Below are positions 10,058 to 16,442 of a DNA stretch of 64,000 nt, piece after piece; position 1 is the first letter of the stretch, and each line of letters opens with the position of its first letter. Both the position numbers and the translations under genes were made by a program. The notes under the pieces were generated by a model that saw nothing but the letters and a program-made list of their open reading frames with translations, was not told the DNA's origin and made no database searches. The stretch covers positions 1 through 64,000 of IMG/VR virus record IMGVR_UViG_3300029891_000001; one strand, given 5' to 3'. This DNA is from a virus.

Positions 10058-11075
10058 AGAAATTTCATGTTTTTCAAAGTATAAAGAATTTGCCATAAGC
10101 AGATTAACTAATGACCATTGTTCTGTATGCGGATGTATAACAGAATATGCTTCAAATAACTTATCCTCGCACAAAAACATAATTATTGGCCGGTCTTTAC
10201 TAAAAAATATTAATCCAATATTCAAAAAAATATTATCTGATTTATTAAAAATGGTTGAAGAAGAAGGTTGGGAAGGAAAATTTCGTATAACGATATGTAA
10301 AAATTGTGTCGATAAATATCATATAAGCACTTTTAATATCCTTTGTAAAACATATTTGGACAATATAGAAAAAGAAATTATTGGAAAAACATGAAAATTA
10401 TCCTCAATCCCATTAAAAATATATCTAATATATTTATTGATAGACTTTATGGGTTCAAATGTTTTTATTGTGCCTGTGATGTAAATCCTGAAAAAGCAAC
10501 TTACCTAATATCAGGGTATATAAAAAGAAATTTTACCAAGGCTTTATCTATTACAGAACATAACGGAATTAAAAATACGATAATTTCCATGTTAGGATAT
10601 TTAGACGCAACACGAACATCACCTTCATTATATGTATGCGATCCATGCCTTGAATTTATTAAAAATTTGATTAGAAATTTAACCTGGGAAAAATTTATTG
10701 TGAAAAGTATTAAAGATAATTTGGAGAATAATTATGAAAATTATTTTAGATAAATTAGAACCATATAACTTATTAATAAAAAGAGTTTATGAAGGAGTAT
10801 GTATAAGGTGTGGGAAAAATAGTTATGGTAGAGTAATAAGATTGAGAAAACATTGGAAATTAAAAGACGCCAAAAAACAAAATAACTTACCTTTACTGAA
10901 TTTGACAAAAACCTTATACAAAAAATTCCCAACAGGAATATATATTTGTTTATGTGAACATTGTTATTTAGAAGGATACCAAGAAACAATTTATATTGAA
11001 GAGGACAACGGGAATACTCAAATGAAAGAAGCTATATTCCAAATAATAATTAATAATTCCTTTAAAAAGACTTGA
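10041..11075 (+). CDS. Three C4 zinc-finger proteins, MKIxL family (10041..10394 MKINL, 10391..10753 MKIIL, 10734..11075 MKIIL)
   Basis: CxxC...[IVL]CxxC in each; overlapping and directly upstream of the Ubl gene. Confidence 0.78.
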
Positions 11076-11100
11076 CAATTCATTAATTGTTTATTATATT
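11072..11100 (+). promoter_or_regulatory. Promoter of the Ubl cassette
   Basis: TTGACA(11072)-17-TATATT(11095). Confidence 0.75.
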
Positions 11101-11146
11101 AGAATATGATAAACAAAACACAGTAACTCTTATAAAAGGAAACGCG

Positions 11147-11362
11147 ATGCAAGTTACCGTACAGTATGGGGCTTCAACAATCAATCGGGATCTTAACGGT
11201 CCTGCGATGTCAATCAACGGCCTTCGCGCACTCGTTTCGGAAATTCTTGGGATTCCGAGAGATGCAGTCGCCTATGCCAACGGGGCGAAAGTGAACGATT
11301 CTTACCCTCTCCGCGATAACGACAGTATTGTCTTCCAGAAGACAACCGGAGAAAAAGGATAA
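11147..11362 (+). CDS. Prokaryotic ubiquitin-like (beta-grasp) protein, 71 aa
   Basis: MQVTVQYG...ANG.KV..SYPLRDNDSIVF.KTTGEKG with C-terminal Gly; AAAGGA RBS; adjacent to E2/JAB/E1. Confidence 0.88.
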   Translation: MQVTVQYGASTINRDLNGPAMSINGLRALVSEILGIPRDAVAYANGAKVNDSYPLRDNDSIVFQKTTGEKG

Positions 11363-11376
11363 TTTTAAACTTTAAC

Positions 11377-11410
11377 AAAAAAGGGTGTGAAGAGGTTCAC
11401 GCCCTTTTTT
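11377..11410 (+). terminator. Intrinsic terminator between Ubl and E2 genes
   Basis: AAAAAAGGGTGTGAA-GAGG-TTCACGCCCTTTTTT. Confidence 0.85.
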
Positions 11411-11430
11411 ATTAAAAGGAGAAGATTAAC

Positions 11431-12285
11431 TTGAATATAGATCCATCTAAATCACAAATTCTTATTTGTGGAGAAGAAGTCACTGTTGTAAAAATCATCG
11501 AAGAAAAGACCGTATCTTTGGGAGATTTTTTAAACGGATTGACTAAGAATATCCCTATTTTAACAGAACTTTTGCCAGACGGGACAAAGTGTATAGGATT
11601 CGATGGGGATAAAATGTCCATATGCGTAGAAATTCCTCCGGGGATAAGGCCAATCACTTTTTCTCATAGGGGTAAAGGAGAAAGTCACAAAATAACATTA
11701 AGGTTATATTTCCCATATACCTATATGTTTATAAACAGTTTAATCAGTCCCATCTCCATAAAGTATGTTGGAATGGGCCAAGCGAAAAAGAAGATAACTG
11801 ACATGGATGACCCTATCGGAGCAATCGCTATGCCAAACGTAACTTGGTATCCAGAAGTAGGAGTTTCTGCTATTTGTTTGGGAGAAATATCCATTAAAGA
11901 CAATCTTCATATGTCTAAAGGGATTAATGAACTGATTGCTACAATCTGGGGAAGTCATTGGAACAATGATCTTTGGTACTCTGCGACAGCTGTCACCGCT
12001 GTTGAAAAGATGTTAAGAGAGCAGCCTAAAGTGATTAAAATGGAGTTTGATAATCTTAAGACAATTGAAAAACTCAAACCAGATGAAAAACAAAGATTAA
12101 GCTTCTTGGAAACTTGTATTAATAATAGTCTTACAAAAGAAAATAAAGCCGCATACCTTTATTACTGGGAATTTTTAAGTCTTAATTCTTCTTCAGAAGA
12201 ATTGTCTGAAATGATTGTCCCTCCTCTTGAAGGCAAGTTCTCCGATGTTTTCAAAAAACTAATTGAGGAAATGAGATTCGCATAA
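11431..12285 (+). CDS. Prokaryotic E2-like (UBC-fold) protein, resembling Prok-E2 family D / PRTRC protein B
   Basis: FPY..F...AMPNV...AICLG (putative catalytic Cys)...IWGSHWNNDL; TTG start with GGAG RBS. Confidence 0.8.
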   Translation: MNIDPSKSQILICGEEVTVVKIIEEKTVSLGDFLNGLTKNIPILTELLPDGTKCIGFDGDKMSICVEIPPGIRPITFSHRGKGESHKITLRLYFPYTYMFINSLISPISIKYVGMGQAKKKITDMDDPIGAIAMPNVTWYPEVGVSAICLGEISIKDNLHMSKGINELIATIWGSHWNNDLWYSATAVTAVEKMLREQPKVIKMEFDNLKTIEKLKPDEKQRLSFLETCINNSLTKENKAAYLYYWEFLSLNSSSEELSEMIVPPLEGKFSDVFKKLIEEMRFA

Positions 12286-12322
12286 AAGGTATTCGTAAAA
12301 CCTTAAAAGAAATGAGAATTTA

Positions 12323-12682
12323 ATGGAAAGTAAATATAACAAAAATATGTTTGATATTATTTCTGGAATCCCTGCGATGATTAGAAAAAGAGTAAGAACT
12401 AACAAAAAAGATACAGAAAACAAAATAAGGATTAAAATTGGAGGGGTTCTTACAGAAGAATCCACTTCAACAGTAGATATTTCTACTTTTATCCGAGAAA
12501 ATGAAAAAGATAGTTTGAACCTTAAAAACTACAATGTTGGAGATTGGGGGATTATAGCCCTATTATCTTCAGAACCAAAATCAGATTTACACAACACATT
12601 TTTTGGTTCAAATAACATTTCACGTTTAATAAGATCGGTAGATAATATATGCCTGAAAGAATCCCAAAAAAAGAGAAGGTAG
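12323..12682 (+). CDS. Hypothetical protein inside the Ubl cassette
   Basis: ORF between the E2 and JAB genes. Confidence 0.65.
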   Translation: MESKYNKNMFDIISGIPAMIRKRVRTNKKDTENKIRIKIGGVLTEESTSTVDISTFIRENEKDSLNLKNYNVGDWGIIALLSSEPKSDLHNTFFGSNNISRLIRSVDNICLKESQKKRR

Positions 12683-13530
12683 AAACAAAAATAGAGATAA
12701 TAAAAAATATACCATTATTTTATAAAGGGCAAGAACCTGATGATTCTTCGCATTGTATTGTAATAGGCAAAAATGGAGCCTTTTTCAAAGTATCTAACCA
12801 TTTATATTCTTGTTTTACTGATATAAAAGACAAAAAGTTTTCTTTCCTGGATGATATAGAGACTGACGCTACTGTAAAATTACCAAAAGTATCTCTTGAT
12901 ATTTATTCTACAATATTGAAATTCTTCCGAGCAGTATATAAAGAACATTCTTCTGAAGCTGGAGTATTGTTAGTAATGAATTTGTCCAAACCAGTAGAAG
13001 AACAAGAATACAAAATTGTTGTTCCAGAACAAGAAGTAAGTGGAGCGCATATAGATTATAAGATAAAAGAAAAAGATATTGACCTATTATTAGAAGAAGG
13101 AGAAATCTTAGTAGGATCTTTTCATTCTCACCCAAATTTTGGAGCTTCGCAATCAAACGTAGATGCTGGAGACGAACTTAATTTCGATGGATTGCACGTT
13201 ACTCTTGGATATATTACAAGAGATGAACCTGAAATTCATGCAAGATTCTGTTTCCATGGACAAACTTATATTTCTAAATCTAATTGGATACAAAAAAGGC
13301 CCAAAGGATTAGATTATACTTTCCCAAAAGAATGGTTAGAAAAAGTTAAGAAGCCTGTTGTTAAAGTTTATACTTGTGGAGTTAATAATGCTTGGTCGAA
13401 TAATTATAGTTCACAGAGTGGAGTAGATTATAAAAAAGATTTTTGGTATATGACAGATTTATTTATAAGACCTGAAAAAATAAATAAGCACAACAAAAGC
13501 AAAAAACCAGTAATATATGCAATAGTATAA
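12649..13530 (+). CDS. JAB/MPN+ metallo-isopeptidase (PRTRC protein A-like)
   Basis: SEAG...GSFHSHPNFGASQSNVDAGDE matches the JAMM motif E-xn-HxH-x7-S-x2-D. Confidence 0.9.
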   Translation: MPERIPKKEKVETKIEIIKNIPLFYKGQEPDDSSHCIVIGKNGAFFKVSNHLYSCFTDIKDKKFSFLDDIETDATVKLPKVSLDIYSTILKFFRAVYKEHSSEAGVLLVMNLSKPVEEQEYKIVVPEQEVSGAHIDYKIKEKDIDLLLEEGEILVGSFHSHPNFGASQSNVDAGDELNFDGLHVTLGYITRDEPEIHARFCFHGQTYISKSNWIQKRPKGLDYTFPKEWLEKVKKPVVKVYTCGVNNAWSNNYSSQSGVDYKKDFWYMTDLFIRPEKINKHNKSKKPVIYAIV

Positions 13531-13541
13531 GGAAAAAATTA

Positions 13542-14252
13542 ATGACATTCAAAAATATCTACATTATAGGAGCGGGCGGAATAGGTTCTCATTTAATAAA
13601 TCCTTTGGGAAAGTTTATAAAATATTATTCCGAATCTTCATTGCCTTTCAATGTTGTCATAATTGATGGAGATAAAGTCGAAGATGATAACATTAAAAGG
13701 CAATGTTTTATTCCTTCAGACGTTAGCAAGAAAAAGGCTGCTTGTTTAGCAGATTGGTTTACAGCAATATGCGGAAAAGATCCTAGATTTAATATATATC
13801 CGATAGAAGATTATCTCACACCTAATAATATAGGAGATATAATAAAAGACGATTGCACTATCTTTGTTGGAATAGATAATCTTGTAAGAAGAGGAACAAT
13901 AGAAAAATATGTTACAGAGAAATTAAAAAATGCCTTGATAATATTTGGGGGAAATGAGTATGAAGATGGAGATGTTAATGTAGTTCTAATAAAAAACGGA
14001 AAACTCCAAACCCCATTGTATAGTGAAAAACATCCTGAGATATTTACGAAAAGAGACAAATCTCCAGAAGAGAAATCTTGTACAGAAGAAACTCCTCATT
14101 TCCCTCAATTGGTTTTAATAAACTCGACTATAGCGAACATCATGGTTAATGCTTATTATTCCGTACTAAAATTACAAAAAGTTACTAACCATGAAATATT
14201 TACCAATGTTGCGATAAACAATACTGTAGGAGTTGGATATGGAAAAAAATAA
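13542..14252 (+). CDS. E1-like ThiF/MoeB-family adenylyltransferase
   Basis: IIGAGGIGS, IDGDKVE..NIKRQ, K-KA, GIDN..RR, GGNE, KSC (putative thioester Cys), PQL..IN. Confidence 0.92.
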   Translation: MTFKNIYIIGAGGIGSHLINPLGKFIKYYSESSLPFNVVIIDGDKVEDDNIKRQCFIPSDVSKKKAACLADWFTAICGKDPRFNIYPIEDYLTPNNIGDIIKDDCTIFVGIDNLVRRGTIEKYVTEKLKNALIIFGGNEYEDGDVNVVLIKNGKLQTPLYSEKHPEIFTKRDKSPEEKSCTEETPHFPQLVLINSTIANIMVNAYYSVLKLQKVTNHEIFTNVAINNTVGVGYGKK

Positions 14253-14253
14253 A

Positions 14254-14943
14254 ATGGCATATTGCAAAAAATGTCTTCAAGTATTAAGGAATAAAATAGA
14301 CATTGATTTTGTGACTGATAAAGGATGTTGCCCGATATGTGGATATTATATTAATGATAAATATAGAAATTTCAAAATTCCATTAGATTCAGGAGAATTA
14401 GAAACAACAGAAGAAGAAGGATATTTTATTTCAGAAATAATAAGCAAAGAAGGAGAAAACTGCGAAGAATGTTTTACTTTTCTTCCTTGCGTTACACAGG
14501 AAAATTATTGGGTATGTAATAAATGTTTTTCCACTCTTTTTTATGATGGAGAAGCATTCTTGCAGGCAAAAAATTATAAAAAACAAATATACGATGAATG
14601 CAGTAAATGTCCTTTTCTAAAAACTTGTTATCCAGAAGGGATAAAGACGAATAAAGGAAGTAGTATGAGTAAAGAAATCACTCCAGAATTGTTAAAAGAT
14701 GAACCAATCCTAAAATCAATAGCAGAAAGAATAAAGCAAAAAATTGACGTTATTCCAGGATACAAAGTTAAAGAACCAGCATTGGGAATTGGAATTTTGT
14801 TAAATTTGTATCAATCTTTTTCCGCTGATTTTATAGAAAATGTATTAGACAAATTCTCCGACAAAGATGTTATTGAATATACAAAAGAATCATTGAAAAA
14901 TATTGAAAAAGCAAAAGGAATATTAATAAAGGCTGGGTTATAA
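14254..14943 (+). CDS. Multi-zinc-ribbon protein following E1
   Basis: Five CxxC pairs in the N-terminal part; helical C-terminus. Confidence 0.7.
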   Translation: MAYCKKCLQVLRNKIDIDFVTDKGCCPICGYYINDKYRNFKIPLDSGELETTEEEGYFISEIISKEGENCEECFTFLPCVTQENYWVCNKCFSTLFYDGEAFLQAKNYKKQIYDECSKCPFLKTCYPEGIKTNKGSSMSKEITPELLKDEPILKSIAERIKQKIDVIPGYKVKEPALGIGILLNLYQSFSADFIENVLDKFSDKDVIEYTKESLKNIEKAKGILIKAGL

Positions 14944-14955
14944 GGTGTATTCGTA

Positions 14956-15543
14956 ATGGACAAAATTGGAAAAAATATAATAGATTTTGCTACCGAAAAC
15001 AATAGAGTAATAGATAATGTCGTAAGAAGAATCCTAAGGCAAAATCATGAATATACCGACAAAGATATTTATAATAGATGCCTTGTTATCATTTGGAAAA
15101 AAATAGAAGAAAAAGGAATAAAGAATATAAATAAAGTCATATTATATAGATTATTATACACCAATGTCCTTAAAGAAATTTTTATAGAAAAAGATATAAT
15201 ATTAAAAGATAGGAAATATAAAGAAAAGTTTCCTACAATAGAAATTTTAGACAATATTGAATATTACTCACCAAAAAATAACTATTTAGATTTGATTCCT
15301 TTATTATTGAAATATAGTTCTCTTACTGAAATAGAATTGGTAATTATAGTTTTATTCTATGATTTAGAAATTCCAGAATCTATGTTAGATGAATATAAAG
15401 AGATAATTGACAGAGAACCTGGTTATTGGAATTCAAAAGAAATAAGCATATATTTAAAAAAACCAATATCAAAAGTATCTCTTTATAAAAAAATGGCCAT
15501 AAAAAAAATAAAAGAATATGTAAAAAAGTACCATAAACTATGA
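14956..15543 (+). CDS. Divergent sigma70-family factor / region-4 HTH protein
   Basis: LTEIELVIIVLFY...SKEISIYL....SKVS.YKKMAIKKIKE. Confidence 0.72.
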   Translation: MDKIGKNIIDFATENNRVIDNVVRRILRQNHEYTDKDIYNRCLVIIWKKIEEKGIKNINKVILYRLLYTNVLKEIFIEKDIILKDRKYKEKFPTIEILDNIEYYSPKNNYLDLIPLLLKYSSLTEIELVIIVLFYDLEIPESMLDEYKEIIDREPGYWNSKEISIYLKKPISKVSLYKKMAIKKIKEYVKKYHKL

Positions 15544-16442
15544 ATACAATACATGAATTTATTGGACAAAAAAATATAGTTAAAGAATTATCCGTTCACT
15601 TATTGTTTTCTAATATATGGGGGAAACCATTAGAACATACTATGTTTTATGGGCAAGCTGGATTAGGAAAAACTACATTAGCAGAATTGACAACCAAAAC
15701 TTTAGGGACTAATTTTATACAGAAAACAGGAAAAGAATTAAAAATATCTATTCTTCAAGATATATTAGAAAATATAAGGTACTGTGATGTTTTATTCATA
15801 GATGAAATCCACAGAGTTAAAATAGATACACAAGAAATATTATATGGCCCAATTCAAAATATAAATAACCTTCAAAAAGATTTTATACGAAATAAAATGT
15901 TTCCTTCAGAATTTATTTGGGAAAACAAATTGTATAAGCCTTTTACTTTAATTGGAGCAACTACTTCTGCTGGAATGCTAACTAAACCGATGAGAGATAG
16001 ATTTATTCATGCTTTTGAATTAAAATTATATACCAGCGAAGAAATAGAATCAGTTTTAATGAGAAATGGATGCAATTCACAATGTTCTAAAATAATAGCT
16101 AAAAGGTCTAGGGGAGTACCAAGAATTGCAATATCTTTTCTAATTAAGGCGCATAACCAAGGGTTATATGTACCAGAAATAAGACCAAAAGATTGTTATG
16201 CTGTTTTTGATTATTCAGGAATAGATGAATTAGGATTAAATCCAACAGACTTATCTATATTGTATTATTTGGCAGAAAATGGGGAAACAGGAGAACAAGT
16301 CCTCAGTTTAACTTTAGGTATTGATATAGAAAGTTTAATTTATATACACGAACCTTATTTAATGAGTTTGAATTTTATTAAAAGAACTACAAAAGGAAGA
16401 CAAATAACAAAACAAGGATTAAAATATATAGGTAAAAAATGA
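15540..16442 (+). CDS. ruvB: Holliday junction branch-migration ATPase RuvB
   Basis: GQAGLGKTT, FIDEIHR, PFTLIGATT, PMRDRF, SRGVPRIA, EPYL, RT.KGR. Confidence 0.93.
   Translation: MNTIHEFIGQKNIVKELSVHLLFSNIWGKPLEHTMFYGQAGLGKTTLAELTTKTLGTNFIQKTGKELKISILQDILENIRYCDVLFIDEIHRVKIDTQEILYGPIQNINNLQKDFIRNKMFPSEFIWENKLYKPFTLIGATTSAGMLTKPMRDRFIHAFELKLYTSEEIESVLMRNGCNSQCSKIIAKRSRGVPRIAISFLIKAHNQGLYVPEIRPKDCYAVFDYSGIDELGLNPTDLSILYYLAENGETGEQVLSLTLGIDIESLIYIHEPYLMSLNFIKRTTKGRQITKQGLKYIGKK

Follow-up and report, generated by a model that had tools for sequence, protein, structure and literature searches.

The first 64 kb of the 111,438-bp IMG/VR virus record IMGVR_UViG_3300029891_000001 (completeness estimate ~70%), in the following referred to as the window, harbor a gene cassette at positions 11147-14252 which is likely a phage-borne, ParB-less relative of the ParB-Related, ThiF-Related Cassette (PRTRC) and, judged from its sequence, would work as a conjugation cycle for a ubiquitin-like protein (Ubl). 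PRTRC (NCBIfam TIGR03734-03742) is equated here with operon type 6d of Iyer, Burroughs and Aravind (2006; PMC1779556) and is found on plasmids and integrative and conjugative elements (ICEs). The initial annotation of the window described six co-oriented open reading frames (ORFs), encoding a Ubl, an E2-like protein, a protein of 119 aa, a JAB/JAMM metallopeptidase, a ThiF-type E1 and a Zn-ribbon protein. All six are present on the + strand at 11147-14943 (Table 1), with the Ubl, E2, JAB and E1 genes forming the core of the cassette.

The conservation of the cassette was assessed in related viral loci. A scan of IMG/VR with an alignment of E1 sequences yielded 136 contigs, of which 80 were kept, many of them spanning 100-527 kb. 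With the window itself and two phage loci from GenBank added, these form a set of 83 loci, in which ORFs were called and searched with E1 and E2 hidden Markov models (HMMs) as well as with iterated HMMs seeded by the JAB and the Ubl of the window. Single-protein searches of IMG/VR with the E1, the nearest E2 homolog and DnaE found nothing; likewise, blastn of the cassette against GenBank phages gave no match. E1 was present in all 83 loci, JAB in 79, E2 in 70 and the Ubl in 64, the cassette genes being almost always adjacent and co-oriented. The order realized in the window (Ubl, E2, an additional gene, JAB, E1) is common to a sister locus on a 103-kb contig (L005), whose E1 shares 44% identity with that of the window (tblastn; SH-aLRT support of 98 in a quick tree of E1 sequences).

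The E1 consists of a single ThiF domain (residues 5-212), which matches PF00899 well above its cut-off (1.4e-15, 57.5 bits vs. 28.1), and its best named family is PRTRC_ThiF (2.2e-21, 76.3 bits vs. a curated cut-off of 144.75). It carries the GxGxxG motif at residues 10-15, and the KSC cysteine pointed out in the initial annotation is found as K178-S179-C180, with the codon of C180 at 14079-14081. Among 27 E1 homologs, G10, G12, G13, G15, D42, G43, D44, R53, Q54, K65, D112, N113 and C180 are invariant, the latter being the candidate thioester cysteine. In comparisons with solved structures, the E1 profile matches MoeB, ThiF, Uba4, NAE, UBA5 and SAE2. The JAB likewise carries the JAMM motif from which the initial annotation read it as an isopeptidase: residues 159-172, HSHPNFGASQSNVD, match HxHx7SxxD perfectly, and Glu103 lies upstream of them. 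This motif is retained in all 70 unique JABs from the viral loci. The protein matches PRTRC_A over residues 29-206, including the N-terminal extension (6.4e-8, 32.4 bits vs. a curated cut-off of 101.8), Prok-JAB (PF14464) just below the cut-off of 25 (E-value 1.2e-4, 22.4 bits) and the JAB model of PADLOC (1.3e-4).

The 71-aa protein ending in GEKG had been read as a beta-grasp protein, and the ORF at 11147-11362 is indeed modelled with this fold. The AlphaFold2 (AF2) model, built with 38 relatives from the viral loci, has a predicted local distance difference test (pLDDT) score of 89.8 and a beta-beta-alpha-beta-beta-beta topology, and Foldseek against PDB placed ubiquitin on top (probability 1.00, TM-score 0.65-0.75, root-mean-square deviation (rmsd) 2-3 Å over ~70 residues). 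The Ubl aligns in register with the 38 viral-locus Ubls, with G46 invariant and G8, G68, K70 and G71 at least 90% conserved. Direct library scans gave just weak ThiS-like hints and a word-index homolog search returned the Ubl itself alone; an HMM iterated from the window Ubl reaches gp199 of the Bacillus phage vB_BauM_KLEB27-3 (2e-7). The GxKG terminus is conserved in the family: 40 of 56 unique sequences stop exactly at the Gly, which fits the earlier proposal that the JAB is not required for maturing the Ubl of the window, and 12 of the 56 extend by 1-16 residues. Such extensions are a classic mark of modifiers that have their C-terminus uncovered by proteolysis.

The E2-like protein was proposed because of its PNV...ICLG residues, which correspond to P135-N136-V137 and I148-C149-L150-G151 (codons of N136 and C149 at 11836-11838 and 11875-11877). 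A word-index homolog search returned the protein itself alone and tblastn against GenBank phages gave no match, but exhaustive phmmer searching recovered 94 homologs with 23-38% identity. In an alignment of 79 of these, 29 match Prok-E2_D (PF14460, best 8.3e-10) and 17 match PRTRC_B (TIGR03737, best 2e-7). P95, N136 and C149 are invariant in the alignment, with G151, N178, D180 and W246 nearly so, and among the E2 homologs of the viral loci the Cys is retained in 70/71 and the Asn in 69/71. An AF2 model based on the homolog alignment (pLDDT 87) was compared with known structures by VIA-align, which does not depend on Foldseek; its top rows were almost all UBC, UEV or RWD folds (Z 4.0-5.0), including BubCD (Z 5.0, rmsd 3.6, 102 residues), Cap2 (Z 4.7), CdnG-E2 (Z 4.5), UbcH10, Ubc13/Mms2 and the Tsg101 UEV. 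Since these Z values are low, the E2 assignment rests on the sequence link to Prok-E2_D.

Taken together, the cassette resembles PRTRC/type 6d in the following: the Ubl is small, separate and Gly-terminated, the E2 lacks the HPN histidine (Prok-E2_D/PRTRC_B), the JAB is extended at its N-terminus (PRTRC_A), and the ThiF-type E1 is short (PRTRC_ThiF). PRTRC families are the best-scoring named families for the JAB and the E1 directly, and for the E2 and the Ubl via their homologs. Nevertheless, the PRTRC_A and PRTRC_ThiF scores lie far under the curated cut-offs (32 vs. 102 and 76 vs. 145 bits), and the cassette is carried by a phage instead of a plasmid or ICE. Moreover, none of ParB_N (PF02195), PRTRC_B (TIGR03737) and PRTRC_E (TIGR03741) found a match anywhere in the 111-kb record, at ~70% completeness. 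The initial classification as a PRTRC/E2-family-D type system therefore holds with regard to related families for all four core genes, but not with regard to family cut-offs and ParB.

Several points weigh against a working conjugation cycle of this type. For the window E2, neither Pfam nor NCBIfam gave a direct family match at E <= 1, the E2 profile found no match among PDB sequences, and Foldseek of the model against PDB returned nothing at E <= 0.001; its top rows, rotavirus VP8*, were taken as noise. In absolute terms, the modelled fold similarity (Z 4-5) may be regarded as supportive, not decisive. For the E2s of type 6d, a histidine located downstream of the Cys was described as conserved without exception (PMC1779556). 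In contrast, the columns tallied for the 79 homologs contain no conserved His downstream of C149; conserved positions in this part are S175, N178 and D180, and His occurs at position 179 in 7/79 and at position 180 in 2/79 sequences. Likewise, Prok_Ub (PF14454) and PRTRC_C (TIGR03738) do not match the window Ubl directly, and PHROGs and PADLOC scans of the E2 and the Ubl yielded no useful match. The Ubl of the sister contig (L005:4667-4885), the closest relative, ends in GTKA with Ala replacing the terminal Gly, and may either be activated at Ala, be a variant requiring processing or be decaying. The E1, which lacks UFD and CYS domains, is a minimal enzyme of the ThiF/MoeB-like type typical of sulfur carriers, and for the window cassette neither an E3 nor a target-recognition protein is apparent. 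Finally, no experimental test of PRTRC/type 6d was found in the open-access literature and bioRxiv.

Among the relatives, the commonest gene order is E2, JAB, E1 and Ubl, with an E2 of 820-880 aa carrying its E2 domain N-terminally and a Ubl of ~155 aa. In these large E2s (L006:93-2582 and ~34 similar loci), the E2 domain comprises approximately residues 30-270 and is followed by a C-terminal part of ~580 aa without Pfam match, which could be the target-recognition (E3-like) part missing from the short E2 of the window. The Ubls of this clade measure ~155-320 aa (L015:7710-8669, L006:4439-4930 and ~35 similar loci). One of them (L015) features a SAP domain above cut-off (3.8e-6) as well as two beta-grasp-like regions (ThiS, TGS), another (L006) a weak Rho_N match, and these domain matches hint that large-clade Ubls may be tethered to nucleic acid. 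A cluster found in 38 loci encodes a second ThiF-like protein of ~290 aa 3' of the Ubl (e.g., L006:5564-6454; ThiF 8.4e-14), and a cluster likewise found in 38 loci encodes an RNA-polymerase beta-prime-like protein of 903 aa near the large-E2 cassettes (e.g., L006:7148-9859). Radical-SAM and WYL_2 genes occur upstream of the large-E2 cassettes in ~32 loci.

The radical-SAM and second ThiF-like genes of this clade are also what would be expected to some degree if the Ubl were a sulfur carrier, i.e., if it were adenylated by the E1, then thiocarboxylated, and donated sulfur to a nucleoside, DNA or a cofactor, with the E2 as an accessory and the JAB merely maturing the carrier. This agrees with the best solved-structure sequence matches of the E1, which are MoeB, Uba4 and ThiF, and with the weak ThiS-like matches of the Ubl family. 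Still, such a role appears improbable. The 111-kb record matches neither rhodanese nor MoaE nor ThiG, at ~70% completeness, which agrees with the absence of thiamine and molybdopterin genes noted initially, and an E2-like protein with invariant Cys and Asn accompanies the E1 in 70 of the 83 loci. Furthermore, the window Ubl is already Gly-terminated and needs no maturation, but the JAB is retained nonetheless, and the top structural match of the Ubl is ubiquitin, not ThiS or MoaD.

Two isolated phages carry the cassette. The Bacillus phage vB_BauM_KLEB27-3 (OM634661) encodes a ThiF protein (gp194), a protein annotated as containing a PRTRC_A domain (gp195) and an E2 (gp196; Prok-E2_D 2.7e-4, hhalign against the E2 profile with a probability of 98%). 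Its gp199 (L004:631-1380), annotated hypothetical only, consists of four tandem Prok_Ub/PRTRC_C repeats, each ending in GVKG, followed by seven residues, and matches PF14454 (3.8e-27) and TIGR03738 (6.7e-17) above cut-off. In the Salmonella phage Arash (OQ632216), HMMs identified E2 (gp248c), JAB (gp247c) and E1 (gp246c), and the Ubl HMM detected no Ubl. The E2 and E1 homologs of Arash were detected by mass spectrometry, which indicates expression rather than virion location because the 116-protein 'structural proteome' of this phage includes ribonucleotide reductases (PMC10585845). Both phages resemble the window in having adjacent and co-oriented genes for an E2_D-like protein, a PRTRC_A-like JAB and a ThiF-like E1, and KLEB27-3 additionally in the position of the Ubl upstream of the E2. 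They differ in an E1 identity to the window of 27-32% only, and KLEB27-3 further in its fourfold Ubl repeats and in two additional genes between Ubl and E2. In a human faecal phage contig (MT835919, L003), JAB and E1 are adjacent and an E2_D-like gene lies ~4.8 kb downstream, past a DNA polymerase III beta-like gene; evidently, the cassette can be divided. A paper describing phage-borne copies of the cassette was not found in the literature covered.

The poly-Ubl of KLEB27-3 must be cut, and Ubl and JAB pairs are known from phage tail assembly (PMC1779556). Both would suit a role restricted to processing, as proposed for lambda TAPI/TAPK, in which the JAB cuts a Ubl precursor for an assembly or chaperone function without any conjugation. 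This is, however, very improbable, as it leaves unexplained both the conserved E1, with its adenylation residues and Cys intact, and the conserved Cys of the E2. In addition, the window Ubl, being a single unit, offers no site for such a cut, and the cassette is located outside the tail module.

Among the bacterial systems of related composition, type 6B corresponds to CBASS Cap2/Cap3, 6C to Type II Bil and 6E to Bub (PMC10557695, PMC11601603, PMC11601596). Among the relatives tested, Bub conjugates proteins (PMC11601596), and for Type II Bil (6C/CEHH) both the conjugation to proteins and the pre-processing of the Ubl by the JAB were shown experimentally (PMC10557695). BilABCD systems of Type I and of Type II share with the window four separate genes arranged as Ubl-E2-JAB-E1. 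Nevertheless, BilD, a large E1, has an inactive and an active adenylation domain in tandem and additionally a mobile, inserted CYS domain (PMC10557695), whereas the window E1 comprises one ThiF domain in 236 aa. Moreover, PADLOC models matched neither the E2 nor the Ubl of the window, the E1 matches being to CBASS-type E1-E2 fusion models, and Bil is a chromosomal defence system, whereas the window cassette is phage-borne. Type II CBASS Cap2/Cap3 and Bub have in common with the window a JAB partner and a ThiF-type adenylation domain, and their UBC-like E2 fold with catalytic Cys has a putative counterpart in the window E2 with its candidate Cys149. They differ in fusing E2 to E1 or JAB to E1 and in their modifier, which is either a Ubl-E2 fusion or the CD-NTase itself; the window features four separate genes and neither a cyclase nor a DUF6527 gene.

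The same biochemistry could also serve a conflict module carried as cargo, acting in superinfection exclusion, defence against competitors or addiction instead of host takeover. In this respect, anti-phage immunity is the function of those bacterial E1/E2/JAB systems for which a role was shown, namely the Bil operons and type II CBASS (PMC11601603, PMC10557695), PRTRC resides on plasmids and ICEs (PMC1779556), and the PADLOC matches of the E1, weak as they are, point to CBASS models. Against this stand the synteny of the cassette in early and replication regions of phages and the lack of an adjacent Bil or CBASS effector gene. In addition, more than 100 viral contigs, up to 527 kb long, and lytic isolates have kept the cassette, a pattern more in line with a phage function than with sporadic cargo. 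A role as conflict cargo is considered rather unlikely, more so than a use by the phage itself.

The transcription of the cassette appears to be less uniform than initially assumed. TTGACA-17-TATATT, at 11072-11100, is the top sigma-70-like site (11/12) in a scan of 10500-15700, in which the total of promoter-like sites is no greater than in shuffled sequence. An AAAGGA ribosome-binding site precedes the ATG of the Ubl. Directly 3' of the Ubl stop follows a hairpin with U-run which the initial annotation did not mention; the RNA fold of 11366-11415 has a free energy of -21.1 kcal/mol (z -5.75), and none of 200 shuffled sequences was equally stable. Due to this terminator-like hairpin and the promoter-like site upstream, the Ubl gene looks like its own promoter-terminator unit. 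The hairpin probably separates the Ubl transcriptionally from the enzyme genes, which would be transcribed via read-through or from another start. Hence, the description of all genes as lying behind one promoter of their own is correct as to the promoter-like site exactly at 11072, but is at odds with the terminator-like structure behind the Ubl gene. The latter further stands out by a GC content of 49% and a GC content at third codon positions (GC3) of 0.49, compared with a GC3 of 0.15-0.32 in neighboring genes and a GC content of 30% in the window. The Ubl gene of the sister contig is likewise GC-raised (41% vs. 28.5%). The high GC content could result from a codon bias that favors strong expression, from a recent transfer or from a constraint at the RNA level.

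The 119-aa and Zn-ribbon genes had been counted among the components of the system, which was not borne out. Neither has a detectable homolog in the 83 related loci and, thus, they do not belong to the core. The 119-aa protein has no match in Pfam, NCBIfam or PHROG and nothing usable in PADLOC, and for an identification with PRTRC_E or the alpha-helical protein of type 6d no family match was obtained. The sister contig carries an ORF of 121 aa in the same slot, with marginal similarity (BLASTP E-value 0.014), and the 119-aa protein is possibly a lineage-specific accessory. The Zn-ribbon protein contains a helical tail and two CxxC pairs that resemble a Zn ribbon; its cysteines are residues 4, 7, 25, 26, 29, 70, 73, 79, 88, 91, 116, 119 and 125. 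It has no match in Pfam, NCBIfam, PHROG or PADLOC and no paralog in its own genome, and at the equivalent position the sister contig contains an unrelated gene encoding 213 aa. A function as E3 or adaptor was discarded on the grounds of the missing homologs and paralogs and of the lack of a RING-like ligand pattern. Atlas look-ups of both proteins gave nothing credible; LRR_6 rows were dismissed because of few shared features and a pLDDT of 0.40 of the Atlas model.

Table 1. Positions of the cassette genes and of adjacent signals in the window.
Feature	Position	Strand	Characteristics
Promoter-like site TTGACA-17-TATATT	11072-11100	+	consensus match 11/12
Ubl, 71 aa	11147-11362	+	ends G68-E-K70-G71
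Terminator-like hairpin and U-run	11383-11410	+	9-bp stem, 4-nt loop; between Ubl and E2 genes
E2-like protein, 284 aa	11431-12285	+	PNV...ICLG; N136, C149
119-aa protein, function not assigned	12323-12682	+	34-nt overlap with JAB start
JAB/JAMM metallopeptidase, 293 aa	12649-13530	+	HSHPNFGASQSNVD; HxHx7SxxD at 13123-13164
ThiF-type E1, 236 aa	13542-14252	+	GAGGIGS; K178-S179-C180
Zn-ribbon-like protein, 236/229 aa	14233/14254-14943	+	CxxC pairs

From the 119-aa gene through the Zn-ribbon gene, neighbors overlap or are spaced by no more than ~12 nt. Directly 3' of the cassette, a sigma-factor-like gene (14956-15543), whose homolog in the sister contig matches Sigma70_r4 (4.5e-6), is followed by a gene for a RuvB-like AAA+ ATPase (15540-16442; RuvB_N 1.1e-31, RuvB_C 5.7e-16). 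The sister contig is syntenic on both sides: upstream are genes for small Cys-rich proteins, downstream those for a sigma-70-region-4 protein and a RuvB-like ATPase. The record, with a GC content of ~30% in the window, further encodes a DnaE-type polymerase, DnaB helicase, primase and clamp-loader genes, its DnaE sharing at most 35% identity with any GenBank phage. The cassette is flanked by small early Zn-finger genes on one side and by the sigma-like factor, the RuvB-like ATPase and replication genes on the other. Because of this location, an intracellular role, e.g., in takeover, replication or transcription control, is favored over one in virion assembly. The early expression and counter-defence proposed initially are speculative, as is host takeover.

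According to the conjugation cycle proposed here on the basis of homology, the 71-aa Ubl would be overproduced from a promoter of its own, while the terminator would damp read-through into the enzyme genes. The ThiF-type E1 would adenylate Gly71 of the Ubl and then hold the Ubl as a thioester on Cys180, from which it would move to Cys149 of the E2-like protein. The E2 might subsequently transfer the Ubl to lysines of phage or host proteins, and the JAB metallopeptidase could reverse the conjugation. In relatives with extended Ubl or poly-Ubl, the JAB would additionally expose the reactive Gly.

The stripped-down type 6d cassette of Ubl, E2, JAB and E1 without ParB recurs in large phages as a strongly conserved module. 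The cassette of the window itself is one further, rather divergent member, with a GC-rich Ubl gene bounded by promoter and terminator and a syntenic sister contig as its specifics. The chances are about even that large tailed phages tag host or phage proteins during infection by means of their own Ubl writer and eraser, with the Ubl overproduced from a promoter-terminator unit. As culturable Bacillus and Salmonella phages carry the cassette, its function is testable. If true, the conjugation cycle would be a virus-side counterpart to the bacterial Bil, CBASS and Bub conjugation and would provide a first function for PRTRC/type 6d. Phages writing and erasing Ubl marks would add a new layer to the conflict between phage and host and offer a first handle on PRTRC.

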